Shown piece after piece: positions 9,023 to 64,000 of a DNA stretch of 64,000 nt; within the stretch, counting starts at the first letter, position 1; each line of letters opens with the position of its first letter. A program made the position numbers and the translations under genes. The notes below the pieces were generated by a model that had not been told where the DNA came from, made no database searches, and saw only the letters and a list, made by a program, of their open reading frames with translations. Source of the DNA: a virus; the IMG/VR virus record IMGVR_UViG_3300046514_000858, positions 29,746 through 93,745 of that record. One strand, given 5' to 3'.

Positions 9023-9474
9023 TGGGCGCGCACATCCTTGGCGATTTCCGCACGCAGCCGCACTGCGAATTGCCCGAGTCCTACTTCACCGGCCGAGACT
9101 GCTGGGTCGACTGTCGCGCGCCCGACATGTTGCACATCTCCCGGGACTGCAACATCGGCTGGGAGGCCCGGCTGGTCTGTCAGTCCCACAACCCGATGCC
9201 CGGCAAGTTCGGCGACGTGACCGCGCGCTCGATTATCATTCGGCCCAAGGCGTTTATCGCCGGGTTCGCGACGCTCTACAACTGCGAGATCGGCGAGGGG
9301 TCTGTCGTGGCGCTCGGGGCCGTGGTGAGAAGTCGGATCGTGCCGCCGTGGGTGATCGTCGAGGGGAATCCGGCGCGCATCGTGAGCAGCTTCGACCATG
9401 TGCTCGGGAAGTGGGTCGAGGTGCCGGGGGAATCAGGACTTGGGGAGAACCTTCCAATGCGTCATCGGCGGTAG
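9022..9474 (+). CDS. hexapeptide-repeat (LbH) acyltransferase
   Basis: IGEGSVVALGAVV...VPPWVIVEGNPARIV. Confidence 0.85.
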   Translation: MGAHILGDFRTQPHCELPESYFTGRDCWVDCRAPDMLHISRDCNIGWEARLVCQSHNPMPGKFGDVTARSIIIRPKAFIAGFATLYNCEIGEGSVVALGAVVRSRIVPPWVIVEGNPARIVSSFDHVLGKWVEVPGESGLGENLPMRHRR

Positions 9475-19409: not shown

Positions 19410-19443
19410 GCCCGACGCGCGCGACCTGTCCAAGAGGATAGCA

Positions 19444-21467: not shown

Positions 21468-21517
21468 CGCGAAAAACAGAAGCACCGCGCGGGATGTGCT
21501 GTCCAAGAGAGTAGACC

Positions 21518-26271: not shown

Positions 26272-26369
26272 GCCTGCAGAGCATCCTCGTACCTCCTGTC
26301 CAAGAGAATAGCCCCCGTCCTATGGGGATGGTCTCGTTTTACTCCACTCTTTGACAGGACATTAGGACC

Positions 26370-28069: not shown

Positions 28070-30571
28070 ATGGGCGTAACGAACGAACAGGTCCTGACCG
28101 CGGTCCTTCGCATGCGCGACGAGCTGTCGCCGGGCATGAAGAAGGCTCAGCAGGCGACCAGCGATTTCGACAAGACGATGGGCGGCGTCAAGAAGACGCT
28201 CATCACCCTCGGAACCATACTGGCCGGGCTACAGGTCGCCCAGTTCATCAAGAGCATCATCAACACCGCCAGCGAGCTCGAAAAGCTGTCGAAGCAGACG
28301 GGCGTCTCCACCACCAACCTGCAGAAGATCGCCGCGTCCGCCAAGTCCGCGGGCGGGGACATTCAAGACGTCGCGATGGGCTTCCGCACGCTCAGCATCA
28401 ACGCCCAGCAGGCCGCCGCGGGCAATGATGTGGCGCGGGCTAAGTTCGAAGGTCTCGGCATCAGCATTCGTGACGCCAGCGGCAAACTCAAGAGCGCCGA
28501 GATTCTCTTCGGTGAGGTCGCGGATGTCATCCACGACACCGAGAGCTCGACCCTGCGCATGACCATCGCTCAAGAGCTGTTCGGACACTCTGCCCTGCGC
28601 CTCCTCCCGACACTCGAACAGGGCCGGGATGGTCTGTACGCTGTCGGCGATGCAGCGGAGCGGTTCGGCGGGATCCTGAGCAAGGACTCGGTCAAGGCCC
28701 TCGACGATTTCGGGAATCAACTCACCGCGACCAAGGATGTCATGACGGCGGTGATCGGCAACTGGCTGGTCCAGTCGGGCGTCACCGTGCCCGCGATCAT
28801 CGACCTGTTCGGCAAGCTGGTGCAGGGCGTGCAGGGCGTCATGCTGGGCTGGAAGATCATTTTCAATTCCGCGTGGCAGACGATCAAGTTCTTCGCCAAC
28901 GCGGTCAATGATATCCTGACCGGCATTGTCACGACCATCGCGGTCTTTCTCGCCAAAGCCCTGCATCCTATGACCGAGTTCGCCAAGACTCTGCTCCAGT
29001 GGTTCGGCAAATACCTGCCGGATGGCATCAAGGATACCCTCGGCGGCCTGATTTCCTTCGCCGACAACCTTGCGGGCAAGGGACTCGTCGATCCGCTGCA
29101 GGAGACTATCTCCAAGATCGACAAAGGTTGGGAGCAGCTCGGCACGAACGTCGACAAGTACAACAACGAGACCGCGGCGAACACCGTCGAAAAGGTCGAC
29201 CTGACCCTCAACAAGCTCGAAGAGCTCAAGGCCGCCATCGGAGCGGTCAGCGGCACGGCTAAGAAGGCCGCCGCCACGCCTGTTCTGAGTGCTTCGGCCG
29301 CGCTCGACGATCTCCTCCGTCTCGGCGGCGAGGCGACAAACGCCGGACCGAACGGCAAGGTCTCGGATGCAGAGCGCGAGATCCGCATGAAGGAAGCCTC
29401 TCTGCGGAGCAAGCTGCAGGCTTTTCAGGAGGAAACCGGCATCAAGGTCACCACCGAACAGCTCCGCCAACTCGCTATCGCGGCGCAGCAGGGCGATGAG
29501 TCGCTCAAGAAGATGCTGGACGACATCAAGCGGATGGCGGAGGCCGACCCGTTCACCGGTTTCGAGCTGGCGATCTACGATCTGTCGAAGGCGTCCTACT
29601 CCTTCCGCGACGCGTGGACGGGGATTTTCAATGACCTGAAGTCTGGCTTCTCGGACATGTTCGCCAACGCCATCGAGGGCACGGACAGCTTCTCGAACGG
29701 CTTCAAGAAGGCGATGAAGTCCCTTAAGCACGACCTGATCAAAATGTTCACGGACTTCGCCACATCGTCGCTGTTCCAGTCGGCGGGCGGCGGCCTCCTC
29801 GGAATGCTGGGCCTCGGCGGGGGCGTGAGCGGAGCTCCGGGATCCACGACCGGCCCCGGCAGCAACAACATGGCGCAGCAGGGCACGAACATCGCCGGGC
29901 AGGCGCTCTCCTCCGGCGGCGTGACCATGTCCAACTTCACCACCGCTCTGGGCGGGGTCGGCATGAGCGCGGGATCGCTCGGTGCGGTGGCCGGGCTCGG
30001 CGCGGCCGGTACTGCGCTGGCGGTGAGCGGCGTCTCGAACGGCAACGTCACACAGGGCACGGTCGGCGGCATCGTGGCGGGCGCGAGCATGGGCGCTATC
30101 GTGGGATCCATCATCCCGGGCCTCGGCACCGTGGCGGGCGCGGTCATCGGTGGCATCATCGGCGGCGTCACGGGCTACCTCGGCTCCAGCCGCAAGAAGC
30201 GCAAGAAGGCGCGCGAGGCCGCCCGGCACGCGGCGGAGGCGCTGGCCGCCTACAACGCTGCCATCGCCAAGGCCCGCGTCGTCCTGAAGCAGGACATCCG
30301 GAATAAGATGGGCGGCGGGCTGGCGACCGAGGAAGCGGCCTCCGACTACGGGCGGCTCTTCTCCGGTGACCTCTCGGCCGACGAGATCATGGCCTTCGGC
30401 GATCCCGCCGCGGTGGCCGCGAAGGCGTCCGAGGTGAACCGGCAGACCAACGTCAACGCGCCCATCACGGTGAACGCGCAGATCACAGGCTCGTACGACG
30501 TTGCCGTTCTCGCGCAGGAGCTGAGCTACCATCTGCAGAATCAGATGGGCGGTTCGGCGGGAGGCATCTGA
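28070..30571 (+). CDS. tape measure protein
   Basis: 833 aa Ala/Gly-rich helical; LSKQTGVST..LQ, A.ELFG, LLP.L. Confidence 0.9.
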   Translation: MGVTNEQVLTAVLRMRDELSPGMKKAQQATSDFDKTMGGVKKTLITLGTILAGLQVAQFIKSIINTASELEKLSKQTGVSTTNLQKIAASAKSAGGDIQDVAMGFRTLSINAQQAAAGNDVARAKFEGLGISIRDASGKLKSAEILFGEVADVIHDTESSTLRMTIAQELFGHSALRLLPTLEQGRDGLYAVGDAAERFGGILSKDSVKALDDFGNQLTATKDVMTAVIGNWLVQSGVTVPAIIDLFGKLVQGVQGVMLGWKIIFNSAWQTIKFFANAVNDILTGIVTTIAVFLAKALHPMTEFAKTLLQWFGKYLPDGIKDTLGGLISFADNLAGKGLVDPLQETISKIDKGWEQLGTNVDKYNNETAANTVEKVDLTLNKLEELKAAIGAVSGTAKKAAATPVLSASAALDDLLRLGGEATNAGPNGKVSDAEREIRMKEASLRSKLQAFQEETGIKVTTEQLRQLAIAAQQGDESLKKMLDDIKRMAEADPFTGFELAIYDLSKASYSFRDAWTGIFNDLKSGFSDMFANAIEGTDSFSNGFKKAMKSLKHDLIKMFTDFATSSLFQSAGGGLLGMLGLGGGVSGAPGSTTGPGSNNMAQQGTNIAGQALSSGGVTMSNFTTALGGVGMSAGSLGAVAGLGAAGTALAVSGVSNGNVTQGTVGGIVAGASMGAIVGSIIPGLGTVAGAVIGGIIGGVTGYLGSSRKKRKKAREAARHAAEALAAYNAAIAKARVVLKQDIRNKMGGGLATEEAASDYGRLFSGDLSADEIMAFGDPAAVAAKASEVNRQTNVNAPITVNAQITGSYDVAVLAQELSYHLQNQMGGSAGGI

Positions 30572-31344
30572 TGGCCACTCCTTCGATCAAGTTCGATAGC
30601 GTCGACCTCGCCGAGTACATCGCGACGTGGGGCGAGAACGCCAACGCCCGCATCAACGCCGTCACGGTCCCCCGGCGGCACGGTGCCCTCATCACGGAAT
30701 CCGTGGTCGAGGACGCCCGGACCATCAACGTCGCGGGCCGGATCTCCGCCGACACCGCCTCGGGCCTGCGCGATCTGCTGGACGCTCTGTCCGAGCTCTT
30801 CACGCGCCGCGGCAAGCGTCTGCAGCTCTGGGACGACCGGTACATCGTGGCCTACAAGGCGACCTTTGCCTTCGCGTACGTGGTCGGCTCGGCCCTGCGG
30901 GCGGTCGACTTCACGCTCCAGTTCTTCTGCCCCGACCCGTTCTGGTACGGCACCTCGGCAGAGACCACGAACTACGACCTGACCGAGGCCGACGTCCCGC
31001 TCGACATCACCAACAACAAGTACCGCCGGACGATCACGATCAACAACCCCGGCAGCGCCTACATCTTCCCGCTCATCACGGTCACGACCGGCCTTGAGCC
31101 CCTGACCACGATTGTGGTGCGGAACATCACCAGCGGCCGGTATTTCGTGTACACCGGGACGCTTCCCATCGGCAAGGCGCTCGTGATCGACATGGCCAAT
31201 TTCACGGTCAACAACGACGGCGTCGAGGACCTGACCAACTTTCAGGGCGACTTCTTTGCCCTCCAGCCGGGGGACAACGAGATCCAGATCGAGGGCACCG
31301 CCCCGGCCAACTACCAGTTCGACTACCCCATCCGGTACAACTGA
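30571..31344 (+). CDS. distal tail protein (Dit-like)
   Basis: VP.RHG, R.I...G.I, F.CPDPFWYG, I.N.G.....P, G.FF.LQPG.NEI. Confidence 0.85.
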   Translation: MATPSIKFDSVDLAEYIATWGENANARINAVTVPRRHGALITESVVEDARTINVAGRISADTASGLRDLLDALSELFTRRGKRLQLWDDRYIVAYKATFAFAYVVGSALRAVDFTLQFFCPDPFWYGTSAETTNYDLTEADVPLDITNNKYRRTITINNPGSAYIFPLITVTTGLEPLTTIVVRNITSGRYFVYTGTLPIGKALVIDMANFTVNNDGVEDLTNFQGDFFALQPGDNEIQIEGTAPANYQFDYPIRYN

Positions 31345-32021
31345 TGAACCGGGAGGACTTCCTCTTCCCGGCCGGTACCGTCGCCGCCCGGCCCCGGCGG
31401 AGGGGTCTGGCCCGTATGATGGTGCTGGACCGCGCCACGGGCGATTTAACGCATCGTACGGTCCAAAACCTCCCAGAGTACCTTTCCGGCTGGGAAACGT
31501 GGGCAAACGCCTCCTACGCAGCGCAGCACCCCAATCCAGAGCTGCACCCCCTCTACGCCGCCGTTCCGGGGTCCCACGCCACCCCCAGCGCCGGGATCCC
31601 CCTGCCCGAGGATGTGGTCAAACGGCTGGAAATCAAGACGTTCACTCTCCACATCGGCGGTCCAAGAGATCAGCCGGACATTCGCCAAGGATTCAAGACC
31701 GGGGTGGGCTGGCGGGAATGGTACCAAATTCCCGCCCCGCCCAAGACCCCGGTCGCTGCCATCGGAACGACGGCGGTCAAGGCCATGGAGACGTGGGCTC
31801 GAACCGGCCAGCTTGAAGGCTGGAGCGACCTCTTCATCCAGCCCCCCTTCGAGTTCAAGGCTGTCGGGAAGCTGCTGACGAATTGGCACTTTCCCGGCGA
31901 GCCGCTGCTGGCGCTGACCTGCGCCTTCGGCGGATATGAATTTGTGCGTGAGGCATACGAGGCGGCTGTGGCCGAGAAGTATCTCTTCTCCTGCTACGGC
32001 GACCGCCTCCTGATCATCTGA
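31344..32021 (+). CDS. queA: QueA-like protein lacking the inserted beta-barrel domain
   Basis: A.RP...ARMMVLDR..G...H, YA..PGS.A.PSAG, TLHIG, AIGTT..KA.E, LFI.P, LLTNWH.P, AF.G....EAY..AV..KY.F..YGD.LLI; only 225 aa. Confidence 0.85.
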   Translation: MNREDFLFPAGTVAARPRRRGLARMMVLDRATGDLTHRTVQNLPEYLSGWETWANASYAAQHPNPELHPLYAAVPGSHATPSAGIPLPEDVVKRLEIKTFTLHIGGPRDQPDIRQGFKTGVGWREWYQIPAPPKTPVAAIGTTAVKAMETWARTGQLEGWSDLFIQPPFEFKAVGKLLTNWHFPGEPLLALTCAFGGYEFVREAYEAAVAEKYLFSCYGDRLLII

Positions 32022-35000
32022 TGAGTTGCACGGGTCCGGCCCCGACCTTCGCGGATATCGGCGATTGGGTCCTCTCTCACGACGGATCCGGTTGCGAGAA
32101 CACCGCCACCATCCACGTCAACGCCGAGTGCGGCTCGTCCGGCTACACCGTCAAGCTCATCCGCACCATCGACGGATCCGACACGACGGTCTACACGGCC
32201 TCCATCCCCAACGGACCTTTGACGGCGATGGCGTTCTCGTACGAGGACCTTCCGCCGTGCGGGCACAAGACCATCGAATACCGCTGGGAGATCCAGTGCG
32301 ACGGCGTCCTGCAGTCGACCAGCTACAACATGTCGACGGATCAGGGTGGCGGCCAGACCCTGACCGGGCACACGATCAATGTCTCCTCGTGCGAGGCCAC
32401 CGACCAGATCCGGGTGCAGCAGAATTGCGGCAACTGCGCGGCCACCCTCAAGCTCTATCGGTCGGCCATCAACTCCTCGGTCACCTTCGATCCGGGCGAG
32501 GTGATTTACACGGTTTCCGTCGGCGCGGGCGTGACCGACCAGACGTACTCGTACGGCGACACTCCGACCTGCGGCTACGGCCAGTACCACTACCAGTGGC
32601 GGCTCACGCCGTCCGATGACGCGGCGATCACGTCGGACGAGCAGACGTACGATCAGGAAACCGCCCCGACAGTCGACGGCTTCACGCTGACCCCCGCAGG
32701 TTGCGACAACGTTGCCAGCGTCCACGTTCTCCAACCCTGCGGCCGGTGCGGTGCGATCCTGAAACTATACCGCCACTTCAACGGCTCGGTGGCCTTCAGT
32801 CCCGACGAAGTCATCCACACGGAAGATGTGCCGCAGGGATTCTCCGATGCCACGTACAGCTACACCGACACGCCCTCTTGCGGTAAGGGAACGTGGCACT
32901 ACGCGTGGAAGCTGGAATGGGACAACGGCTCGACCGGCGTCGCGGAGCTCACGGCCGATGGCGCGCTCCCGGCAACCCTCGTCGATCACGAGATCGCCAA
33001 AGACGCCGAGTGCAACATCACCAACAAGATCAAGGTCACGAATCCCTGCCTCGCGTGCGCGGGCACGATCAAGCTCTATCGGAAGCTCAACTCCGCGCCC
33101 GCGGGCGTGCCGGGCGAGCTGATCTATACCGACGCCGTCCCGGCGGGGCTGATCGTCCACAAGCAGTACATCTACACCGAGCATCCGGGAGACGGGCACT
33201 GGTACTACGAGTGGTCGGTCGTGGATGTGGACGGCAACGTCGACGACACGCTGCCTCCCAAGGACATCACGGTCGACTGCACGGTCTACGTTCCCGCCCG
33301 GGTCACGCTGCCTTCGGATGCGTTCGAGAAGCAGGTCGTGCTCGTGCAGGTCACGGGATCCCCCGCGGGCGGGCTGATCTTCACCGACAAGCAGATTCTC
33401 AATCTCGCCGAGCAGCGGCTGGAGTGGTGGTACCACAAGAACGGCGGCTGTGCCTACTTCCGGATCCTGACCCACGAGTTCCTCGACGGCGCGGACTTCA
33501 CCGACGCGATGGATGAGTCGTGGGAGGTCCACGTCCGCATCAAGCTGGGCGGCGAGGACACGTACACGACGTGGTACCGCGGCGTCATCCGATCCATCAA
33601 GCAGCAGGAACAGGGCACCGACCTCTACATGGACGTCCGCGGCTACGGCTACGTCGAGATGCTCAACAACATCATGGTCCAGCGGGAGTATCCCGTGGGC
33701 ATGACGGTCAAAGAGATCGTCGACGACATCATCGACAAGGACGTCCGGCCGTGGACTCGCATCGTCCGGCCGAGCGACATCGACGTCACGAACGGCGACA
33801 GCGGCGTCGATCCGTCCGGCTATGCCATCAAAGACCGCGTCCACTTCGAGTGCTCCGCCCTCACCGCGATCAAGTTCCTCGCCGAGCTGCAGGGCGACCG
33901 TGAATGGGGAGTTGACGCCCTCCGGCGCTTCTACTTCCGGGCCAACAACTCGGATGTCGTGGCCAACTTCTTCCTGCTGAAGGACGTCATCGACCGCGTC
34001 GCGGGCGGCAAGATCCTCGGCCAGACCAACAGCTACAAGATGGCGGGCAAGTCCTTCGGCGCACGCGACTATCTCAAGGTGCGCGCGGACGTGACGGACG
34101 CCACCGCCGTGGGCCGCCGCGAGAAGGCAGTCGAGCTGCCGTGGCTGGAGGGCGACCTCGACGCCAGCCGCTGGGCCGACAACATCATCGGCATCAATCG
34201 GGGTGGGCAGCAGTGGGCCGTCATCACGAAGAAGCACGTCACCCAGCGCCTCGACGCCTCGCACCCGTTCGGCCGGGTCACCGTGTACGGCTCGGACATG
34301 TCGAACGACGTGCACACGTACGACATCGCCAAGATCCAGTACATCGAAGGCGGCCCGCGCGCGCCCGCGGAGGTGCGCGAGAAGGGCGTGCCCAAGAAGA
34401 CGGCCGACAACGACCAGCCGCTGAAGGTCCAGTATTACCTCGGCCACTACCCGAACGATCTGATCGACGAGCTCAAGGAAACCCTGCGCGACCAGATCGA
34501 GGCGCTCAAGGGCCGCCATAAGCAGTTCCGCTATCCCAACGACATCACGAACGAGGCGATTCTCATTCCGGGCAAGATCCCGGGCGAGATGAAGTTCTAC
34601 CACAAGGTTCCGGACGTCACGAACACGGATGTCCTGAACAGCGCCATCGACCTCTCGGACCCGACGAACCCCCGCGGCTCGCAGGTCGTCTGGATCGGCG
34701 GCCAGTGGGTGAAGGTCTCTGTCCGGCGCACGTTCACCTCCCTGTCCGGCGTCCGGGGCCTGTACATCGGCGAAGTCGCCTCGGTCATCACCGACATCAC
34801 CAACAGCTCGTTCGGTGTGATGTACTGGTGGAACGGGCTGGTCTGGGACGTGGTGGGCTCTGGAAGCGGCGGCGGTGGGGGCGGCGGGTCCTCCGTAGGT
34901 TCCGACCCTCCCACGACCATCCTTCCGGACGATGCGCCGAATCCCGGTGTGTCCGCGCTGGCCTCGCGCCAAGACCACCGTCACGGCATCGCCGCGGACG

Positions 35001-35368
35001 TCGCCGGGCCCATCGCGATTGGCGACAGCGCGGCCGAGGGCGTTGCGACCAGCTTCGCGCGTTCGGACCATCGGCACTCTGTGCCCGCGGGCACGCCGGT
35101 CGACATCACGAACGCGAACGCGGACGGCGTCGCCACGACGTTCGCGCGCTCCGATCACAGGCACCGCGGCATCCGTACCGTGAAGGTGAAGGGTCAGGCC
35201 GACATCGACGGCTACGTCGACATCACGGCCGGGCTCTACATCCGCGTCACGCAATCCGGTCAGACCCTTACGTTCGATGTTGATGATCTGGTGGCCTACA
35301 TCAACACGCTTGCTTTGGCCGCCTATAACCCGATCACCGATCCGGTGTTCTGGTCTCTCATGGGGTGA
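32021..35368 (+). CDS. large tail/baseplate protein: four Cys-rich repeats, Tal/hub-like middle, fibre-type C-terminus
   Basis: Repeated C..C...KLYR...D.P.CG units; GGC..F, W.G.I, GY...L, LAEL.G.REWGVD..R.FYFR; ARSDHRH repeats. Confidence 0.8.
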   Translation: MSCTGPAPTFADIGDWVLSHDGSGCENTATIHVNAECGSSGYTVKLIRTIDGSDTTVYTASIPNGPLTAMAFSYEDLPPCGHKTIEYRWEIQCDGVLQSTSYNMSTDQGGGQTLTGHTINVSSCEATDQIRVQQNCGNCAATLKLYRSAINSSVTFDPGEVIYTVSVGAGVTDQTYSYGDTPTCGYGQYHYQWRLTPSDDAAITSDEQTYDQETAPTVDGFTLTPAGCDNVASVHVLQPCGRCGAILKLYRHFNGSVAFSPDEVIHTEDVPQGFSDATYSYTDTPSCGKGTWHYAWKLEWDNGSTGVAELTADGALPATLVDHEIAKDAECNITNKIKVTNPCLACAGTIKLYRKLNSAPAGVPGELIYTDAVPAGLIVHKQYIYTEHPGDGHWYYEWSVVDVDGNVDDTLPPKDITVDCTVYVPARVTLPSDAFEKQVVLVQVTGSPAGGLIFTDKQILNLAEQRLEWWYHKNGGCAYFRILTHEFLDGADFTDAMDESWEVHVRIKLGGEDTYTTWYRGVIRSIKQQEQGTDLYMDVRGYGYVEMLNNIMVQREYPVGMTVKEIVDDIIDKDVRPWTRIVRPSDIDVTNGDSGVDPSGYAIKDRVHFECSALTAIKFLAELQGDREWGVDALRRFYFRANNSDVVANFFLLKDVIDRVAGGKILGQTNSYKMAGKSFGARDYLKVRADVTDATAVGRREKAVELPWLEGDLDASRWADNIIGINRGGQQWAVITKKHVTQRLDASHPFGRVTVYGSDMSNDVHTYDIAKIQYIEGGPRAPAEVREKGVPKKTADNDQPLKVQYYLGHYPNDLIDELKETLRDQIEALKGRHKQFRYPNDITNEAILIPGKIPGEMKFYHKVPDVTNTDVLNSAIDLSDPTNPRGSQVVWIGGQWVKVSVRRTFTSLSGVRGLYIGEVASVITDITNSSFGVMYWWNGLVWDVVGSGSGGGGGGGSSVGSDPPTTILPDDAPNPGVSALASRQDHRHGIAADVAGPIAIGDSAAEGVATSFARSDHRHSVPAGTPVDITNANADGVATTFARSDHRHRGIRTVKVKGQADIDGYVDITAGLYIRVTQSGQTLTFDVDDLVAYINTLALAAYNPITDPVFWSLMG

Positions 35369-35371
35369 TGC

Positions 35372-35704
35372 ATGGCTGGAACGCCGAAATGCCTGATTCA
35401 GTACCTGTTCACCAACGCGCTGACGACCGCCGTCACCGTCCCGGCGAACAAGCGTTGGACCGTGTCCATGATCCATGTGACGAACATCGACACGGTGCAG
35501 CGCACCTTCACGATCCATCACGTCGCGAGCGGAGACAGCGCGGCGGATAAGAACAAGCTCGCGAAGGCGGCGGCCCTCCCGGCGGCCGACTACTGCGAGT
35601 TCTTTGGCGGGGCCGTGATGGCGACGGGCGACTCGATTCAGGGTAACTCCGATGCCAACAACGGCATCTCGATTCAGGTCTACGGCATTGAGGAGTCCGT
35701 CTGA
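35372..35704 (+). CDS. small tail-associated beta protein
   Basis: TVPA.....V..I.VTN.D...GD.I.G...I..YG.E. Confidence 0.7.
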   Translation: MAGTPKCLIQYLFTNALTTAVTVPANKRWTVSMIHVTNIDTVQRTFTIHHVASGDSAADKNKLAKAAALPAADYCEFFGGAVMATGDSIQGNSDANNGISIQVYGIEESV

Positions 35705-36612
35705 TGCCTCGTGGTATCTCCCGTCATAGAGGAGCAGAAAAGCAGACGATCCTCGACTTGGATACGAGGACCATCACTGCTCTGGCGGCCGACACCGACG
35801 ACTGGGCTGACCTTCTGGTCGGCGCGGCGTTCGCCATCGGCTGCACCGGAGCCGACCGCACGGTCAAGGGCATCGCGGGCGGGCGCGAGGGACGCACCAT
35901 TGAGCTGATCAACGTGCTCGGCTACAACGTCTTCCTGCAGAACGAGGCCACGTCCTCGGTCGCCGGAAACCGCATCCTGACCGGCATGCCGAGCAACGCG
36001 TCCTTCCAGATCCCGCCGAACGGCGCGGTGTTCCTGACCTATAACAACACCGTCAATCGCTGGGTTGTTGCCCACGGGAACGTGAACTACTACCCCGAGA
36101 CGGATGCCAACGTCGCCGTGCTGTTCCGCAACAAGAAACCGAATCGCGCGGGCGGCATGATGACGCAGGGCACCTTCCTGCAACTGCTCGGCACGTCTCA
36201 GGGATTCCTCAAGCCGAAGTTCACCGCCAAGACCAGCGGCGACATCGGCAATCAGGCGTTCGGAGTGGTCTCTGGCGCTCAGGTATCCTTCACGATGCCC
36301 GCAGCCGGAGACGTGATTGTCGCTGTGCATGCCACTTCTAAATCCGGCACGCCCGGGGCGGTAGTGGCCATCGCTTCGGCTATCGGTGTAAGATTCGACT
36401 CTGATACGGCTCTGGTCTTGAACAGCGTGGACATGGTCAACGGCGGCGGCTCGGACTACATCAACGCCTTCCCTCTCTTTGGAGTGTGGGGCAAGTCGCT
36501 CGCTGCTGGCGCTCATACGGCTGATCTTTGTTGGGGAGACTCGTCCGGAAACTACGGCATGTACGCCGACGCGTCCCATCCTGCAGTCATCGCAGTTTTG
36601 TATCCGGGGTAA
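35704..36612 (+). CDS. tail fibre/receptor-binding-like protein
   Basis: I.GI.GG..G..I.L.N....L.NE...S...NRI...Y......W, then a beta-rich domain. Confidence 0.65.
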   Translation: MPRGISRHRGAEKQTILDLDTRTITALAADTDDWADLLVGAAFAIGCTGADRTVKGIAGGREGRTIELINVLGYNVFLQNEATSSVAGNRILTGMPSNASFQIPPNGAVFLTYNNTVNRWVVAHGNVNYYPETDANVAVLFRNKKPNRAGGMMTQGTFLQLLGTSQGFLKPKFTAKTSGDIGNQAFGVVSGAQVSFTMPAAGDVIVAVHATSKSGTPGAVVAIASAIGVRFDSDTALVLNSVDMVNGGGSDYINAFPLFGVWGKSLAAGAHTADLCWGDSSGNYGMYADASHPAVIAVLYPG

Positions 36613-39518: not shown

Positions 39519-40118
39519 ATGACCACGAAGCTGCATATCGGCTGCGGCACCGTTTATCTGGACGACTGGATCAACGTTGACGTGCCCTCCTCGGATTGTC
39601 ATCTCGCCACCGACCGCCCAGATCTCGTCGCCAAGTACCGCACCACGGCCGACGACTATTACGCCCGGCACAAGAAGACGGTCGAGGATCTTCGCAAGGG
39701 GCCGCTCCATCAGGAGTACGTCTGCGACCGCTACGGGTCGTACGAGTTCCTCCCCGCCGCGCCCGGCACGATCACCGAGATCCTCGCGCGACATAGTTTC
39801 GAGCACCTCTCCATCACGGAAGCCCGGCGTGCGCTCGTTCTTATGAATAGGGTTCTCGCGGCCGACGGACAGCTTGTGCTGGACGTGCCCGATCACGAGG
39901 CTACGCTCCGGCTCTACCGAGAGACCGGTGACGAGTTCTTCGTGCGCCATCTGCTCGGCCCACGGAGAAACGACTGGGGTTTTCATTGCATGAGCTACAC
40001 GCCGGAACGTCTGGACGGGCTCTTGCATGACTACGGCTTCTCCCTGATCGCCGACGAGCCCAACATCCACGTCTACCCCGCCTTCTGCCGTCGTTACGTG
40101 AAGCGCGAGGCGATCTGA
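39519..40118 (+). CDS. SAM-dependent methyltransferase
   Basis: KLHIGCG....DWINVD, HSFEHL, RVL...G.L...VPD. Confidence 0.85.
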   Translation: MTTKLHIGCGTVYLDDWINVDVPSSDCHLATDRPDLVAKYRTTADDYYARHKKTVEDLRKGPLHQEYVCDRYGSYEFLPAAPGTITEILARHSFEHLSITEARRALVLMNRVLAADGQLVLDVPDHEATLRLYRETGDEFFVRHLLGPRRNDWGFHCMSYTPERLDGLLHDYGFSLIADEPNIHVYPAFCRRYVKREAI

Positions 40119-40813
40119 TGGATCAGCCCCTTCTGAGCGTGATCGTCGGCACTATTGATCGCCCTCAGCACATCGCCAACTGCATCGAATCCGTCCGGCG
40201 GCACACGACCATTCCTTACGAGCTCATTGTCGGCGACGCATCCGAGCGGCATCCTCCACTGGTTTCCAGCGGCCCCCTACGCGTCGTACGGGAGAAGCCT
40301 CGTCTCGGCCACGCCAAGGGCTACAACCAGCTCTTCCGGCAGGCCCGCGGCAAGTGGGTCTGCTGGCTGAACGACGACGCGCGCGTCACGCCCGGCTGGG
40401 CCAACAACGCGGTCGCGTTCATGGAGTACACCCCATGGGTCGGCCTCGGGTGCTTCTACTACTCCGAGCACGGCTGCTGCTTCCACCTCTCCCAGTATCA
40501 GGATTTCATCTACGCCAACTTCGGGATCCTGTCGAAGCAATTCGGCGACCGCATCGGGTGGTTCGATGAGTGCGTCCGGATGTATGGGGCCGACAACTCC
40601 ATCACCTTCAAGACGATCCTCGCCGGGAAGGGCGTGTCCGGCATCCCCGGCGCGAAGATCATGCACGAGCCCATCTCGGACGACATTCGCCGCGGCAACA
40701 TGGCGGGACAAAAATCCGACGAGAAAGCGCTTTTGGACAAGTATCGACCGTTCATGTGGGAAATGAAGAAGTCCATGGCGCGCCTTCCGCAGTCACCATT
40801 GAGGATTCCATGA
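40118..40813 (+). CDS. glycosyltransferase family 2
   Basis: LSVIV.T.DR, YELIV.D, YN....ARG..V..LNDD, G.FDE....Y..D. Confidence 0.88.
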   Translation: MDQPLLSVIVGTIDRPQHIANCIESVRRHTTIPYELIVGDASERHPPLVSSGPLRVVREKPRLGHAKGYNQLFRQARGKWVCWLNDDARVTPGWANNAVAFMEYTPWVGLGCFYYSEHGCCFHLSQYQDFIYANFGILSKQFGDRIGWFDECVRMYGADNSITFKTILAGKGVSGIPGAKIMHEPISDDIRRGNMAGQKSDEKALLDKYRPFMWEMKKSMARLPQSPLRIP

Positions 40814-41226
40814 TCAAGAAGACGACGATCTCGTTCCACGATACCGGCGACCGCGGTGATCTCGCCGTCTTCGATCTGCCGGGCCCGGAGTGGCAGGGCG
40901 TCCGGACATGTCCATTCGAGCCCCGCCGGATCTTCTGGATCACGAACATGCAGCAGCTCGGCCGCCGGGGCGGCCACGCGCATCGCAAGGGCGAACAGTT
41001 CCTCTTCTGCCCGACCGGCGGCGTCCAGATCGCGTACCAGTGCCCGGAAGGCAAGGGGCTGGTGGTGCTGAAGGGCTCCAGCGTCGGCGCGTACGTCCCG
41101 CCTCTGCACTGGCTGGACATCCGGAACCTGCACACGAAGACGGTGCTCGTCGTGCTGGCCTCGAATCCGTATGACGAAGCGGACTATATCCGCGACCCCG
41201 AGGAGTTCAAGAGGCTCTGCAAGTGA
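40810..41226 (+). CDS. fdtA: dTDP-4-keto-6-deoxyhexose 3,4-isomerase (FdtA/QdtA, cupin)
   Basis: D.RG.L, PF..RRIFWI, RG.HAH....Q, YVPP..W, VLAS..YDEADYIRD. Confidence 0.88.
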   Translation: MIKKTTISFHDTGDRGDLAVFDLPGPEWQGVRTCPFEPRRIFWITNMQQLGRRGGHAHRKGEQFLFCPTGGVQIAYQCPEGKGLVVLKGSSVGAYVPPLHWLDIRNLHTKTVLVVLASNPYDEADYIRDPEEFKRLCK

Positions 41227-42299
41227 AGGTTCCCTACCACGACCTGCAGCCGATCCTCGACATCGAATCCTCCGCCATCGCGGACGCCATGGCTCGCGTC
41301 ATGAAGTCGGGCCGCCTGATCCTCGGGCCGGAAGTGGAAGCATTCGAGTACGAGCTCGCCGAGCGGATGGGATACGCCCACGCCATCGGAGTGGCCAACG
41401 GCACGGACGCCATTGAGCTCGTGCTGGCCCAGCGCCCCTCACACGGCGGCAACGAGGTGCTAGTCCCGGCCAACAGCGCGCCCGCGACGGTGACCGCGGT
41501 CATGCGCGCCGGATGCAGGCCGGTATACTGCGAGGTCCAGCGCAACGGGATTATCAACCCGGAGAAGCTGGGCTACTTCCTGACGCCCCAGACCTTCGCC
41601 GTGCTGGCAGTGGACCTGTATGGACAGCCCTGCGACTACCGGGCGCTGGCCAACTTCGCACACGCGCGCCAGCTCGCGCTCTACTCCGACGGCGCGCAGG
41701 CGTTCGGATCTCAGAGCACCGCCCGACTCTACGTCAACGCCCAGACCATCAGCTTCTACCCGACCAAGGCGCTCGGCGCGCTTGGGGACGGGGGCGCGAT
41801 CCTGACCAACGATCAGGGTCTGATGCTCGACCTCCGGGCCCGGCGCTTCTACGGGATCTACGACCGCCGCACCCTGCAGCAGGACTTCCTCGGCTGCAAC
41901 TCCCGGCTGGACGAGCTGCAGGCCGCGATCCTGCGTGAGCGCATGGATGTCGCCGAGAAGTGGTGCGAGGTCCGCCGCGCGGTGGCGTGGTTCTACCACA
42001 AGTGGATCCGGACCGATCTCCAGCGCCGCTCCTACGACCACAACCAGAACTACCACATCTTCAACATCCACTGCCAAGATCGGGACGGATCCCGCGAGCG
42101 GCTGGCCGGGCGAGAGATCGAGACGGCCATCCATTATCCGATCCCGGCGCACCGCCAGTCCCCCAGCGCCGCGCCGTATCGCGACTTGCCGATCACTGAA
42201 GACTTCTGTCGGACGACGCTGTCACTACCGATCTGGGTCGGGATGTCCGACGACCAGATCCATAGTGTAGTGGGCGGCGTCAACGAGTTGTGCAAATGA
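41223..42299 (+). CDS. DegT/DnrJ/EryC1/StrS PLP sugar aminotransferase (FdtB-like)
   Basis: LGPEVEAFE, VANGTDA, DLYGQ, D.AQA, SFYPTK.LGA.GDGG, NSRLDELQAA, IHYP.P.H. Confidence 0.93.
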   Translation: MKVPYHDLQPILDIESSAIADAMARVMKSGRLILGPEVEAFEYELAERMGYAHAIGVANGTDAIELVLAQRPSHGGNEVLVPANSAPATVTAVMRAGCRPVYCEVQRNGIINPEKLGYFLTPQTFAVLAVDLYGQPCDYRALANFAHARQLALYSDGAQAFGSQSTARLYVNAQTISFYPTKALGALGDGGAILTNDQGLMLDLRARRFYGIYDRRTLQQDFLGCNSRLDELQAAILRERMDVAEKWCEVRRAVAWFYHKWIRTDLQRRSYDHNQNYHIFNIHCQDRDGSRERLAGREIETAIHYPIPAHRQSPSAAPYRDLPITEDFCRTTLSLPIWVGMSDDQIHSVVGGVNELCK

Positions 42300-43351
42300 A
42301 GATCGCCTTCGTCGACACCTACTATCCTGACGTCCTCGTCGGGCGTGACAAGGTCTCGTACGCGTCGCGCATGGCCGATCTGATGCGCCTCCACTTCGGG
42401 ACGGCGTACTACTACTCCGACGCGTTCAAGAAGATGGGCTGGACAGCCATCGACATCATCGGGAACGACACGGATGGCCGCAAGCTCTGGTGCGCCGAGG
42501 CGGGCCTCACGTACGAGAACGATCAGGCGTCCGTCATCGACCAGCTCGTCATCTTCGAGCCGGACATCGTTTACATGCAGGACCTCGGCTTCTTCGAACC
42601 CACCCAGATCGCGGGTCTCAAGAAGCGCCTGTACTGGAAGTTTGTGTCCCAGCACTCCTGCCCGTGGGCCGGAGACAACCGCATTAAGGCGTTCGACGCC
42701 GTCTTCTCGTCCTTCCCGCACTACCTTCCGCGGATCTCCGCGCTGGGCGTTCAGACGTCCATGCTGCCCATCGCTTTCGGCCACCGCGTGCTGGAGCACA
42801 TCAAGCCCCAGCGCCGCGACCTACCCGTGACGTTCGTCGGGGGTCTGAACGGCACGAGCGGGCACTGGGCGCAGGGCACTGTGATGATGGAGCATGTCGC
42901 TGCCGAGGTCCCGGCCTTCAAGTGGTGGGGCTACTTCATCGGCGAGCCGCGCAACTACCCGGCGCTCCAGCGCACCTATCAAGGCCCGGCGTGGGGCATG
43001 AAGATGTACAACGTCTACGCCCGGTCGCAGATGGTGATCAATCGCCACGGCGAGGTTGCCGAAGGCTACTCCAACAACATGCGCATGTTCGAGGCGACCG
43101 GCTGCGGCGCGCTTCTGCTCACCGAGCAGTCGAAGAACCTGCACGATTACTTCGCGCCGGGCATGGAATGCGTCGCGTACCGTGAGCCCGCGGAGCTGGT
43201 CGACATTATCAACAAGCAACTCCTCTGGCAGCCCGAGCTGGTGGCCGACATCGCGAAGCGCGGACAGGCTCTCACGCTGGAGAACCACACGTACGAAAAG
43301 CGGCTCGCCCAGATCGAACCCTTCCTGCAGAAGATCGCGGCGGGCAAATGA
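42296..43351 (+). CDS. GT-B glycosyltransferase (CgeB/Glyco_trans_1_2-like)
   Basis: V.FVG, WG..MY.VYARS..VIN.H, NMRMFEATGCG..LLT, HTY..R. Confidence 0.88.
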   Translation: MKIAFVDTYYPDVLVGRDKVSYASRMADLMRLHFGTAYYYSDAFKKMGWTAIDIIGNDTDGRKLWCAEAGLTYENDQASVIDQLVIFEPDIVYMQDLGFFEPTQIAGLKKRLYWKFVSQHSCPWAGDNRIKAFDAVFSSFPHYLPRISALGVQTSMLPIAFGHRVLEHIKPQRRDLPVTFVGGLNGTSGHWAQGTVMMEHVAAEVPAFKWWGYFIGEPRNYPALQRTYQGPAWGMKMYNVYARSQMVINRHGEVAEGYSNNMRMFEATGCGALLLTEQSKNLHDYFAPGMECVAYREPAELVDIINKQLLWQPELVADIAKRGQALTLENHTYEKRLAQIEPFLQKIAAGK

Positions 43352-44274
43352 AGCACTACTGCACGCTGTTCGATCTGAACTACGCCGCCAAGGGCCTCGC
43401 CCTGTACGAGTCCATCGCCCGTCACTCTTCGGAGGACTTCATCCTCTGGACCGTGCCGATGAACGACAAGACGTGGGATTTCCTGCAGCACACCAAGAAT
43501 CTCCGACCGAACATGGCGGTCTTCCGCGACAGCGAGGTTTTCAACGACCGCTTCTGCAAGGCGGCATATGATCGAGAGATCAGCTACCGCTGCTTCATGG
43601 CGGCCCCTTGGCTACTACACCATCTCCTCGACATGCCGAGCATCGACGAGGCGACCTACCTTGACGCCGATCTGGGATTCTACGCCGACCCCAAGATCGC
43701 GCACGACGAGATGGGCGACAACTCCGTCGGCATCGTGCCTCACCGCTTCATGCCGCACGACGTCGCCCGGCTGTCGCCCAACGGCTGGTTCAACGTCTCT
43801 TGGGTCACGGTGAAGCGCGACAAGTGGGGGATGCCGATCCTGTCGCGCTGGCGCGAGCAGACGCTGGAGAAGTGCGACCGCGAAAGCTGCGGCGATCAGA
43901 AGTACCTAAACGAGTGGCCGACCTTCTGGAACGAAGACGGCGACGGCGTGCACATCTTCAGCCATGAAGGCATTGGCGTCGCTCCGTGGAACGCCATGAA
44001 ATATCGTTTCTTCCCGGGCCCCAAGATCGCGCTGCAGGACGGCCCGGGGTTCGGATCGTGGCAGAAAAAGGAGATCGTCTTCTACCACTACCACGAGCTG
44101 AAGCGCCGCGCGAAGAACGATTATCAACTGACCGGCTACCCGCTACCCGAGGCGTGCAAGGAGCTGATCTACAAGCCGTACATAGCCCAACTTGAGGTGG
44201 GCGAGGATCTCATCACCGAATACGAAAGGACATCGCCATGGTCAAAATCCACTCCCTCCGCACCGACGACCTGA
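43348..44274 (+). CDS. GT-A glycosyltransferase
   Basis: YCTLFD.NY...GLALY.S, YLDADL.F, G.FN...V, GDQKYL..WP, APWN, FYH.H. Confidence 0.85.
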   Translation: MKHYCTLFDLNYAAKGLALYESIARHSSEDFILWTVPMNDKTWDFLQHTKNLRPNMAVFRDSEVFNDRFCKAAYDREISYRCFMAAPWLLHHLLDMPSIDEATYLDADLGFYADPKIAHDEMGDNSVGIVPHRFMPHDVARLSPNGWFNVSWVTVKRDKWGMPILSRWREQTLEKCDRESCGDQKYLNEWPTFWNEDGDGVHIFSHEGIGVAPWNAMKYRFFPGPKIALQDGPGFGSWQKKEIVFYHYHELKRRAKNDYQLTGYPLPEACKELIYKPYIAQLEVGEDLITEYERTSPWSKSTPSAPTT

Positions 44275-45188
44275 AGCTCCTCGGATACACCCAGTTCTCC
44301 GGGCTCAACTTCAAGGGCGCGACGATGGTCGACACCATCGAAGAGGCCGATGCCGTCTTCATCCCGCTCCCGACCCGACCCGTGCTCGACCCGAGCCAGC
44401 GCGGCATCCACATGGGCGCGCCGGAGCTGCAGGAGATCATCACCAAGTTCGGGCTGGAGGAGAAGCGCGTCATCACGTACGATTGCAGCGACTTCACGGC
44501 GGACTACACCGCCACCAACCCCAACTGCATCTTCATCCGCTGCAGCGCAAAGGGCTGGTACGTCCGGCAGATGCCGCGGACCATCTCGTGGCCGTGGCCC
44601 GTCGAAAACTGGGCCGACGTCGTCCCGATGCCGGAAGGTGGATTCAAGTACGACGTCTCCGGCCACATGTGGCTCAGCTCCTCCACCCGAGTGAACGCCA
44701 TCGACAGCGTCCGGGAGACCTTCGGCGCGCGGGCGGACCTCGTGACCCGCAAGGAGTTCTGGGGCTACCTCGAACGCGACGACCTCGCCCGGGCCATGCC
44801 TATGAAGGTCGCCATGAAGAAGTCCATGCAGGAGAGCCGAGTCTCCCTCTGCCCGGCGTCGATCCCCAACGTCTTCCCGTACCGGTTCTTCGAGGCTCTG
44901 AGCGCCGGACGCGTGCCTGCGCTGTTCTGCTCCGACTACGTCCTACCGTTCGGCACCAAGGTGAAGTACAACGACTTCTGCCTGATGTTCGGCGAGGAGG
45001 ACAGCAGGCAGGCCGGGCCTCTGATCAAGGAGTGGCTGTCGCGTCACACAGACGACGAGATCATCGCCATGGGCCTGCGCGGGCGCGAGGCGTTCCAGCA
45101 GTGGCTCAACGTGCGTGATCGCGGCGACGAGCTCATGACGTACGCTATCGAAGAGGCGCTGCGATACGACGGGCTACTCAAGCCCTAA
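44238..45188 (+). CDS. exostosin (GT47)-like glycosyltransferase
   Basis: M..S...LCP......YRFFEALSAGRVP......VLPF. Confidence 0.75.
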   Translation: MVKIHSLRTDDLKLLGYTQFSGLNFKGATMVDTIEEADAVFIPLPTRPVLDPSQRGIHMGAPELQEIITKFGLEEKRVITYDCSDFTADYTATNPNCIFIRCSAKGWYVRQMPRTISWPWPVENWADVVPMPEGGFKYDVSGHMWLSSSTRVNAIDSVRETFGARADLVTRKEFWGYLERDDLARAMPMKVAMKKSMQESRVSLCPASIPNVFPYRFFEALSAGRVPALFCSDYVLPFGTKVKYNDFCLMFGEEDSRQAGPLIKEWLSRHTDDEIIAMGLRGREAFQQWLNVRDRGDELMTYAIEEALRYDGLLKP

Positions 45189-54557: not shown

Positions 54558-54600
54558 TGGTGTCCAAGAGATTGGACGACTGCTCTCTGAAAAGAAGATT

Positions 54601-54694
54601 GCTCCCGTAGTTCAACAGCTAGAACCGCGTCAAAGGTCGCTGCACAAAAACAGTGGACATGAAGCTAATGCAGGTTCAAATCCCGCCGGGGGCT
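54601..54694 (+). ncRNA. tRNA-like RNA with elongated anticodon arm
   Basis: GCTCCCG/CGGGGGC acceptor, GTTC/GAAC D-arm, GCAGG-TTCAAAT-CCCGC T-arm; ~39-nt hairpin in the anticodon position; no CCA. Confidence 0.65.
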
Positions 54695-54837
54695 CTTAGA
54701 AAAGCTGGGGCAGAACGGGTGCAACTCCCGGACCACAATGGACGTGAAAGCGTTCGTGGATGGTGTAACAGCAGCACTCCCCACACTCTAGATTTTACCC
54801 ATCCTGTGCTTGGGAGTGTGGCAGGCACAGGACTTAT

Positions 54838-63593: not shown

Positions 63594-64000
63594 ATGACCG
63601 ACAAGTTGAAAGTGACGCTGACAGTCGACGGAGTGGTGGCCAGCCTGACCCTCCCCGACGACCTGAACATCCACGAGGCCACCCTCAACCGTGACCTGTC
63701 GAATCAGCCCGGCGCGTACGCGTTCTTCGGCATGATCTCCACGCGACTGGGTCTCCACCGTGATCGTGTCTCCCAGACGTTGCGCGACACCACCTCCGCC
63801 GCATCGATTCGAGTGCGTGCTAACGCCGCCGCGCTCGGCGAGAAGACCACCGAGGACAAGATCGCCGCGAAGGTTTCGCTGGAGCCCGACGTCGTCAAGG
63901 CGCGGGAGGCGCTGCAGGTCGCCGAGCGCCAGAGCTCGGAGGCGGCCCTGATCAAGGACGCCTATTACCATCGCCTTCAGGCGCTCATCAGCCTGTCCGC
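63594..64000 (+). CDS. UvsY-like recombination mediator (partial, runs off the window)
   Basis: I.E..L..D...QP..YA.., K.TE..I.A.V, A..HR...LISL; ATG 7 nt after class II motif 63579. Confidence 0.65.
   Translation, partial: MTDKLKVTLTVDGVVASLTLPDDLNIHEATLNRDLSNQPGAYAFFGMISTRLGLHRDRVSQTLRDTTSAASIRVRANAAALGEKTTEDKIAAKVSLEPDVVKAREALQVAERQSSEAALIKDAYYHRLQALISLS

Follow-up and report, generated by a model that had tools for sequence, protein, structure and literature searches.

A barrel-less QueA-like protein between Dit and Tal in the tail-tip operon of a phage

Why would a phage keep a shortened relative of a tRNA-modifying enzyme among the genes that build its tail tip, and what could such a protein do there? 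The question is raised by a 64,000-nucleotide stretch of viral DNA, called the window here, which covers positions 29,746 to 93,745 of the IMG/VR virus record IMGVR_UViG_3300046514_000858. At 31344..32021 on the + strand, between the genes for the distal tail protein Dit and for Tal, the baseplate hub, the window carries an open reading frame (ORF) that runs from ATG to TGA and encodes a 225-aa homologue (P0001) of QueA, the enzyme that transfers and isomerises the ribosyl group of S-adenosylmethionine (SAM) onto the primary amine of preQ1-tRNA. Reviews call QueA unique and credit it with a single known reaction and a single known substrate (PMC9092360, PMC10491745). An earlier annotation made from the letters of this DNA alone, the sequence-only reading, had taken the gene for a domain-deleted QueA, repurposed towards an acceptor other than tRNA. 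In this report, we describe the gene, its relatives and its genomic setting, and weigh that proposal against four others.

The homology to QueA is confirmed by both profile and structure. The ORF matches the Pfam family PF02547 (Queuosine_synth) in two stretches, with an E-value of 5.6e-39 and 134.6 bits against a cut-off of 25, and misses the equivalog cut-offs of the NCBIfam models NF001140 (116.9 bits versus 324) and TIGR00113 (95.2 versus 267.45). A search of PDB sequences aligns its residues 5-49 with residues 19-64 of 1vky, the Thermotoga maritima QueA, and its residues 66-225 with residues 170-347, bypassing residues 65-169 of 1vky, which form the inserted domain. An AlphaFold2 model computed from an alignment of 21 family members (predicted local distance difference test, pLDDT, 89.7; predicted template modelling score, pTM, 0.89) superposes on the QueA structures 1wdi, 1vky and 1yy3 with Z-scores of 21.2-22.7 and a root mean square deviation of 2.3-2.4 Å over 185-196 residues, at 26-37% identity in these structural alignments, and the next-best structural match has a Z of only 3.5. 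When the same model was compared by Foldseek with the PDB, many solved baseplates included, and with BFVD, QueA structures were returned and nothing viral. A search of the ESM Atlas gave generic QueA clusters only, and the isoelectric point fails to distinguish the short family from QueA cores.

The database gene call (P0002, 201 aa, identical in the ESM Atlas record) begins at M25 and omits window positions 31344-31415; because the 24 residues upstream of M25 are conserved in the short family and homologous to the QueA N-terminus, the start at 31344, as originally read, is upheld, and the deposited protein is N-terminally truncated. The barrel-less form is not an assembly artefact, since a 5.6-kb contig from a soil metagenome of another study is identical across 31230-32500.

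The protein consists of the two parts of the QueA alpha/beta core, joined by a short linker. The N-terminal part, residues 1-55 (31344..31508, + strand), aligns to residues 19-64 of 1vky and ends at N55, which is invariant in the short family, where G11 and R20 are nearly so. A linker of residues 56-66 (31509..31541, + strand) occupies the position of the beta-barrel of ~105 residues and of the PLPPYI loop in QueA. The C-terminal part, residues 67-225 (31542..32018, + strand), was described from conservation tables and retains the core invariants E125, G141-T142-T143, E149, T179-N180-x-H182, Y205 and G219-D220, together with the family-specific residues K146, E186 and R221. Across a 263-sequence alignment, the segment from N55 to residue 67 has a median length of 105 residues in 224 full-length QueA and of 11 in 39 short forms, and the columns of PLPPYI are empty in the latter, in agreement with the sequence-only reading that barrel and loop are missing. 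The motif variants that it had listed are likewise all present in the translation, which reads LHIGGPRD, TNWH and SCYGD; compared with QueA, TN(F/W)H and YGD are retained, YQT has become LHP, HVGxGTF has become HIGGPRD and PLPPYI is gone. A barrel supplied in trans was also sought with two barrel profiles against the complete phage genome, and no match was found (all E > 0.4).

A finer picture emerges from the comparison of 208 mainstream QueA with 33 tail-family sequences, the latter ranging down to ~32-36% identity to the window protein. Mainstream QueA has nine polar residues with 100% invariance, and eight of them stay invariant or nearly invariant in the tail family (N55, E125, E149, T179, N180, H182, Y205 and D220), and T142 and T143 are likewise retained. 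The family has lost Y67 of the YQTVYA motif, H86, T108, H119, R214, the R of the V.AR motif, PLPPYI and the barrel, and has acquired the new invariants R146K, S186E, S217D and A221R (QueA residue first); conserved basic residues are over-represented among the losses, and two of the new residues are acidic. Such directional changes would fit a loss of RNA binding and a remodelled acceptor side.

The view that the gene is a pseudogene or a remnant can be rejected on the basis of an intact, conserved family evolving under purifying selection. About 38 short homologues exist. A search of 5.8 billion proteins yielded ~27 proteins of 220-235 aa with full query coverage and 36-72% identity, a profile search of 1.84 billion cluster representatives yielded ~13 short-form clusters at the 50% identity level, and an alignment of 21 short family members contains 31 invariant columns, 14 of them polar. 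The ratio of non-synonymous to synonymous substitution rates (dN/dS), estimated by the Nei-Gojobori method for the two usable pairs of QueA-like genes, most others being saturated at synonymous sites, is 0.25 between the window and the related locus L001 and 0.10 between two further loci, L009 and L007. These values are no higher than those of neighbouring structural genes, Dit giving 0.38 and the tube protein 0.40 in the window-L001 pair, and the relaxed selection that the sequence-only reading had named as the mark of a pseudogene is not seen.

Pattern scans of 185,579 bacterial and archaeal species genomes recovered no member of the short family and none of the divergent full-length group described below, which, given that the patterns were chosen, is weak evidence of absence, and cultured phages contain no close homologue. 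Matches of ~30% identity in cultured phages proved to be ordinary bacterial queA; one example, H1, on an unverified contig, has a 361-aa queA followed by a 392-aa ORF at the position expected for tgt. Six IMG/VR matches of ~32% identity located at contig ends (L013-L018) were similarly taken as ordinary host-type queA, and no fused forms longer than 394 aa were found. A separate barrel-less QueA, the 252-aa metagenomic protein P0147, has the canonical motifs HVGLGTF, YQTIYA and FYSYGDAM and is nested within mainstream bacterial QueA; it represents either an independent barrel deletion or an artefact of assembly or gene calling.

The genes are ordered tube, chaperone, tape measure protein (TMP), Dit, QueA-like and Tal, and the last four form a chain, all on the + strand, in which the TMP (833 aa, 28070..30571; tape-measure PHROGs), Dit (257 aa, 30571..31344; SPP1-type; PF22768, PF05709 and phrog_33), the QueA-like gene and Tal (1115 aa, 32021..35368) are each joined to the next by a one-base ctgATG overlap. 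The TGATG overlaps that the sequence-only reading had reported between the QueA-like gene and both Dit and the large tail gene are thereby borne out. A scan for sigma-70 promoters and terminators around the QueA-like gene found nothing beyond chance.

The arrangement is conserved among relatives. In a neighbourhood survey of short homologues, seven loci had readable flanks (the window, L001, L002, L005, L007, L008 and L009), and in all seven Dit lies directly before the QueA-like gene, or Tal directly after it, or both, with junctions that overlap or abut. The QueA-like protein is 67% identical to that of the window in L001, 56% in L005, 37% in L002 (genome GC 46%) and 32% in L009, and the GC content of the genomes extends from 46 to 63%. 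Gene order is preserved across these relatives for capsid, tube, chaperone, TMP, Dit, Tal and downstream genes, which have diverged about as much as one another, with identity ranges of 32-67% for the QueA-like protein, 36-65% for Dit and 31-59% for Tal; it follows that the QueA-like gene belongs to the vertically inherited core of the tail module. The gene is present on all IMG/VR contigs that have this type of Tal. Family members lie on several contigs of 84-99 kb, which suggests an uncultured siphophage lineage from soil whose genomes measure ~95 kb, and the tube protein has no match at all in cultured phages.

A FastTree phylogeny restricted to the core columns places 38 of the 39 short forms together with 16 full-length proteins (315-333 aa) in one starred 54-sequence clade, apart from 74 mainstream QueA. 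Its full-length members share K146, E186, D217, S161 and P69, as well as the loss of T108 and H119, with the short forms, and retain the barrel, Y67 and R214, along with a degenerate PLPPYI (e.g. PIPPWV). Because they already possess these derived residues, the shift in the core seems older than the loss of the barrel. One full-length member, P0127 (315-322 aa; L003 10001-10948, IMGVR_UViG_3300031576_000109), belongs to a complete and unrelated 44-kb phage, G003, which has no other tail-module gene in common with the window phage. The P0127 gene lies directly after a glycine-rich, tail-fibre-like gene (PF21722, phrog_863/754), and its position is a second link between the divergent QueA-like clade and tails.

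The phage itself offers no queuosine pathway in which a QueA could act. The virus record spans 93,745 bp at 62% GC and has a 127-bp direct terminal repeat (1-127 and 93619-93745, the latter corresponding to window 63874-64000), which indicates that the genome is complete and circularly permuted or terminally redundant; its estimated completeness is 80% despite this repeat. Within the complete 93,745-bp genome, there is one PF02547 locus and no match to TGT/DpdA, QueC, PTPS/QueD, QueF, GTP cyclohydrolase I (FolE), QueE-type or other radical-SAM proteins, which extends to the whole phage the earlier statement that the window lacks tgt and other que genes, for phage genes only, as a host could supply the pathway. 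The only tRNA that ARAGORN detects in the window is a tRNA-Pro at 54601-54695, with anticodon AGG and an unusual length of 95 nt. Since this is the sole tRNA there, and tRNA-Pro is not among the tRNAs that carry queuosine, the idea that a tRNA-like RNA is the acceptor is without support.

Starting from the homology, fold, loss of the barrel, conservation, selection and synteny set out above and from the lack of a 7-deazaguanine pathway in the phage, we infer SAM binding, catalysis, an acceptor and an effect on the tail. The explanation that we tentatively favour, as possible but short of probable, is that the protein may still use SAM enzymatically, with an acceptor other than tRNA, and would act on the tail tip. 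That polar invariants persist at ~32-36% identity speaks for a site of ligand binding or catalysis and against a mere scaffold, and the fixed coupling to Dit and Tal speaks for a job tied to the tail tip. The sequence-only proposal is partly supported. A repurposed enzyme core still under selection, as opposed to a dead remnant, agrees with everything computed: the low dN/dS, the intact family, the retention of most invariant polar residues, the lost barrel, PLPPYI and basic residues, the lack of tgt and preQ1 genes and the placement between Dit and Tal. The acceptors that it named are candidates.

In mechanistic terms, the QueA alpha/beta core, deprived of its barrel, would still use SAM, now on a primary amine other than that of preQ1-tRNA, and by QueA-type chemistry would release adenine and methionine and transfer a ribose-derived five-carbon ring. 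The translational coupling with Dit and Tal makes part of the nascent tail tip the most likely acceptor; a first guess would be a lysine or the N-terminal amine of Dit or Tal, and a second an amino sugar bound to the virion. The predicted adduct would add about 114 Da. Slightly more doubtful is the extension of this scheme to the clade as a whole, as a second natural use of QueA chemistry in which the epoxy-cyclopentanediol ring of SAM is placed on a primary amine of a tail-tip protein or glycan. If that were true, the ~+114 Da adduct would be a previously unseen covalent modification of the virion, bearing a reactive epoxide that could even cross-link, and the purpose of the entire QueA-like clade of phages, barrel-bearing members included, would be virion modification.

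Several observations weigh against an active enzyme at the tail tip. Neither Y67, found in 100% of mainstream QueA, nor the GTF loop is retained, and some short subclades also lack H103, so the chemistry may differ or be lost. As the literature gives the mode of SAM and tRNA binding by QueA as not known (PMC10491745), the retained residues are putatively catalytic, judged by their invariance. More distant Dit relatives (≤34% identity) are followed by the next tail gene with no QueA-like ORF in between, and because all readable loci belong to one phage lineage, their synteny amounts to one evolutionary observation. Finally, stoichiometric coupling to structural genes suits a structural or assembly protein at least equally.

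This last possibility, an exapted and non-catalytic part of the tail tip or an assembly factor for the Dit-Tal junction, in which the conserved residues would serve the fold, ligand sensing or an interface, is the best of the competing explanations, although we consider it unlikely. The one-base overlap chain from TMP to Tal would make the output of the QueA-like gene near-stoichiometric with that of baseplate subunits, no sigma-70-type promoter or terminator sets the gene apart, its position is constant across the related loci whose flanks could be read, and its identity range matches those of Dit and Tal. A scaffold, however, would have no need to keep eight of nine invariant polar residues, buried acidic and histidine residues included, over such divergence. 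Nor does any virion or baseplate chain in the PDB or any viral model in BFVD resemble the QueA-like protein, and the passage of more distant Dit relatives straight to Tal also speaks against this reading.

An active enzyme might alternatively tailor sugars, with the 3-amino sugar of an FdtA/DegT pathway as its acceptor, either on the nucleotide sugar or on a tail-protein glycan, a possibility that we rate as improbable. A sugar cluster is indeed present at 40118-45188, with a family 2 glycosyltransferase (GT2, 40118-40813), the FdtA (40897-41217) and DegT aminotransferase (41223-42299) genes that the sequence-only reading had named, a GT1-like gene and a weak GT47-like gene. QueA chemistry requires a primary amine, and homologous genes occur in relatives, the close relative G001 having DegT and GT2 and L009 a GT2 homologue. 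These genes nevertheless lie 8-13 kb downstream of the QueA-like gene, which is coupled to Dit and Tal instead, and their co-occurrence within one lineage is not independent evidence. The complete phage G003, whose full-length protein belongs to the same clade, has neither DegT nor GT2, and a candidate hexapeptide-repeat acyltransferase, a weak match at window ~9232-9330, could cap the amine in the usual way. A further candidate GT2, the post-capsid gene, could not be confirmed.

It is still less probable that the protein acts on nucleic acid, as a minimal QueA that makes epoxyqueuosine on host preQ1-tRNA or modifies other RNA or DNA, with its location in the tail module being merely historical. 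In its favour, the homology to QueA is clear and most of the core invariants remain, what the barrel does in QueA has not been established (PMC1282579), and manipulation of the queuosine pathway by phages is known (PMC8265664). Against it stand the missing barrel and PLPPYI, the loss of Y67 and of four conserved basic positions, the statement in a phage paper that QueA, QueG and QueH occur in no viruses (PMC8265664), scores far under the equivalog cut-offs (117 versus 324 and 95 versus 267), the lack of tgt or preQ1 genes in the phage, the tRNA-Pro as sole tRNA of the window and the preservation of the tail-tip coupling over deep divergence.

Known phage enzymes that degrade SAM act early, whereas the QueA-like gene sits in a late structural operon. 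The weakest proposal, a counter-defence protein, possibly carried in the virion, that would cleave or bind SAM without an acceptor and starve SAM-dependent host defences, is very unlikely, because even though the first proposed step of QueA is adenine elimination from SAM, which the loss of acceptor-side elements could uncouple, QueA follows an ordered mechanism in which tRNA binds before SAM (PMC10491745), and the newly conserved E186, D217 and R221 point to the gain of a binding site more than to mere loss.

The neighbouring genes have features of their own. The Dit family profile matches SPP1 gp19.1 (2x8k) with an E-value of 9.4e-9, and a D-I-T-N motif at Dit residues 145-148 (window 31003-31014) is invariant in five relatives of 37-65% identity, as are two D-x-T motifs of Tal, at residues 841-843 and 865-867. 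Tal combines Cys-rich N-terminal repeats, a hub from about residue 430 and a fibre-like C-terminal part, and its match to the baseplate hub family phrog_196 is weak. In a model of Tal residues 430-900, the first ~213 residues (pLDDT ~75) form a gp27/VgrG-like hub that compares with solved hubs (HFTV1 tail, a CIS baseplate, Mu gp44, Douge, Bxb1, 80alpha and p2) at Z-scores of 8-13; the fragment beyond residue ~213 folded with pLDDT <30, and a profile search of the fragment against PDB sequences gave no match. The N-terminal part of Tal (window 32021-33310) carries Cys-rich repeats of ~100 aa, whose copy number varies among L001, L002, L008 and L009, the alignment of the window protein starting at its residue 122 with residue 23 of L001 and at its residue 324 with residue 14 of L002. 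The first residues, M-x-C-x-G-x-x-P, are invariant in the five Tal proteins of the window, L001, L002, L008 and L009.

Tal is followed by two genes joined by a one-base overlap (window 35372-36612), encoding proteins of 110 and 302 aa, which have counterparts at L009 14119-15327 with 50% and 43% identity, respectively; neither belongs to a Pfam family, and phrog_1276, of unknown function, matches the 110-aa protein. The motif GGTCCAAGAG occurs as an exact copy at 31659..31668 on the + strand, inside the QueA-like gene and 353 nt upstream of the Tal start. With up to one mismatch, it is found at 17 sites in the window, among them 26297-26306, 19427-19436, 21500-21509 and 54561-54570, compared with 4.9 expected; none of 100 shuffles reaches 17. 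Most of these sites are on the + strand ahead of late genes, and in L001 a copy lies immediately upstream of the Dit start. The motif may be a phage promoter element.

Enzyme folds are not in themselves foreign to such operons. Siphophage tail-tip modules encode enzyme-fold proteins such as lambda gpK, which have peptidase-type folds and act on the cell wall or in assembly; the QueA-like protein resembles them in being an enzyme fold encoded and co-expressed among tail-tip genes, and to our knowledge none of them has the fold of a SAM-dependent transferase. Phages also encode enzymes that decorate virions, in the virion glycosylation systems, or consume SAM, the SAM lyases. Their folds and chemistry differ from those of the QueA-like protein, even if the window phage does have glycosyltransferase, FdtA and DegT genes, and we know of no case of QueA-type ribosyl transfer and isomerisation among them. 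Among the closest known proteins is bacterial QueA (PF02547, TIGR00113; 1vky from T. maritima, 1yy3 from Bacillus subtilis and 1wdi from Thermus thermophilus), with which the phage protein shares the alpha/beta core and its invariants. It differs from it in lacking the barrel, PLPPYI, Y67, the GTF loop and four basic positions, in having K146, E186 and R221 of its own and in being encoded in a tail-tip operon of a genome without tgt or que genes.

Full-text literature searches gave no account of a QueA-like protein in a phage tail or of a barrel-less QueA. What emerges here is a QueA-like clade carried by phages, in which the members without a barrel have a fixed place in a tail-tip operon and keep most invariant residues of the core while lacking PLPPYI and several conserved basic residues. 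If inactive, the protein would clearly exemplify the recruitment of an enzyme core into the tail. If active, it would be a minimal form of the QueA core provided by nature, from which the mode of SAM binding could be worked out, and would add a second substrate class for SAM ribosyl transfer-isomerisation and a new kind of virion modification.

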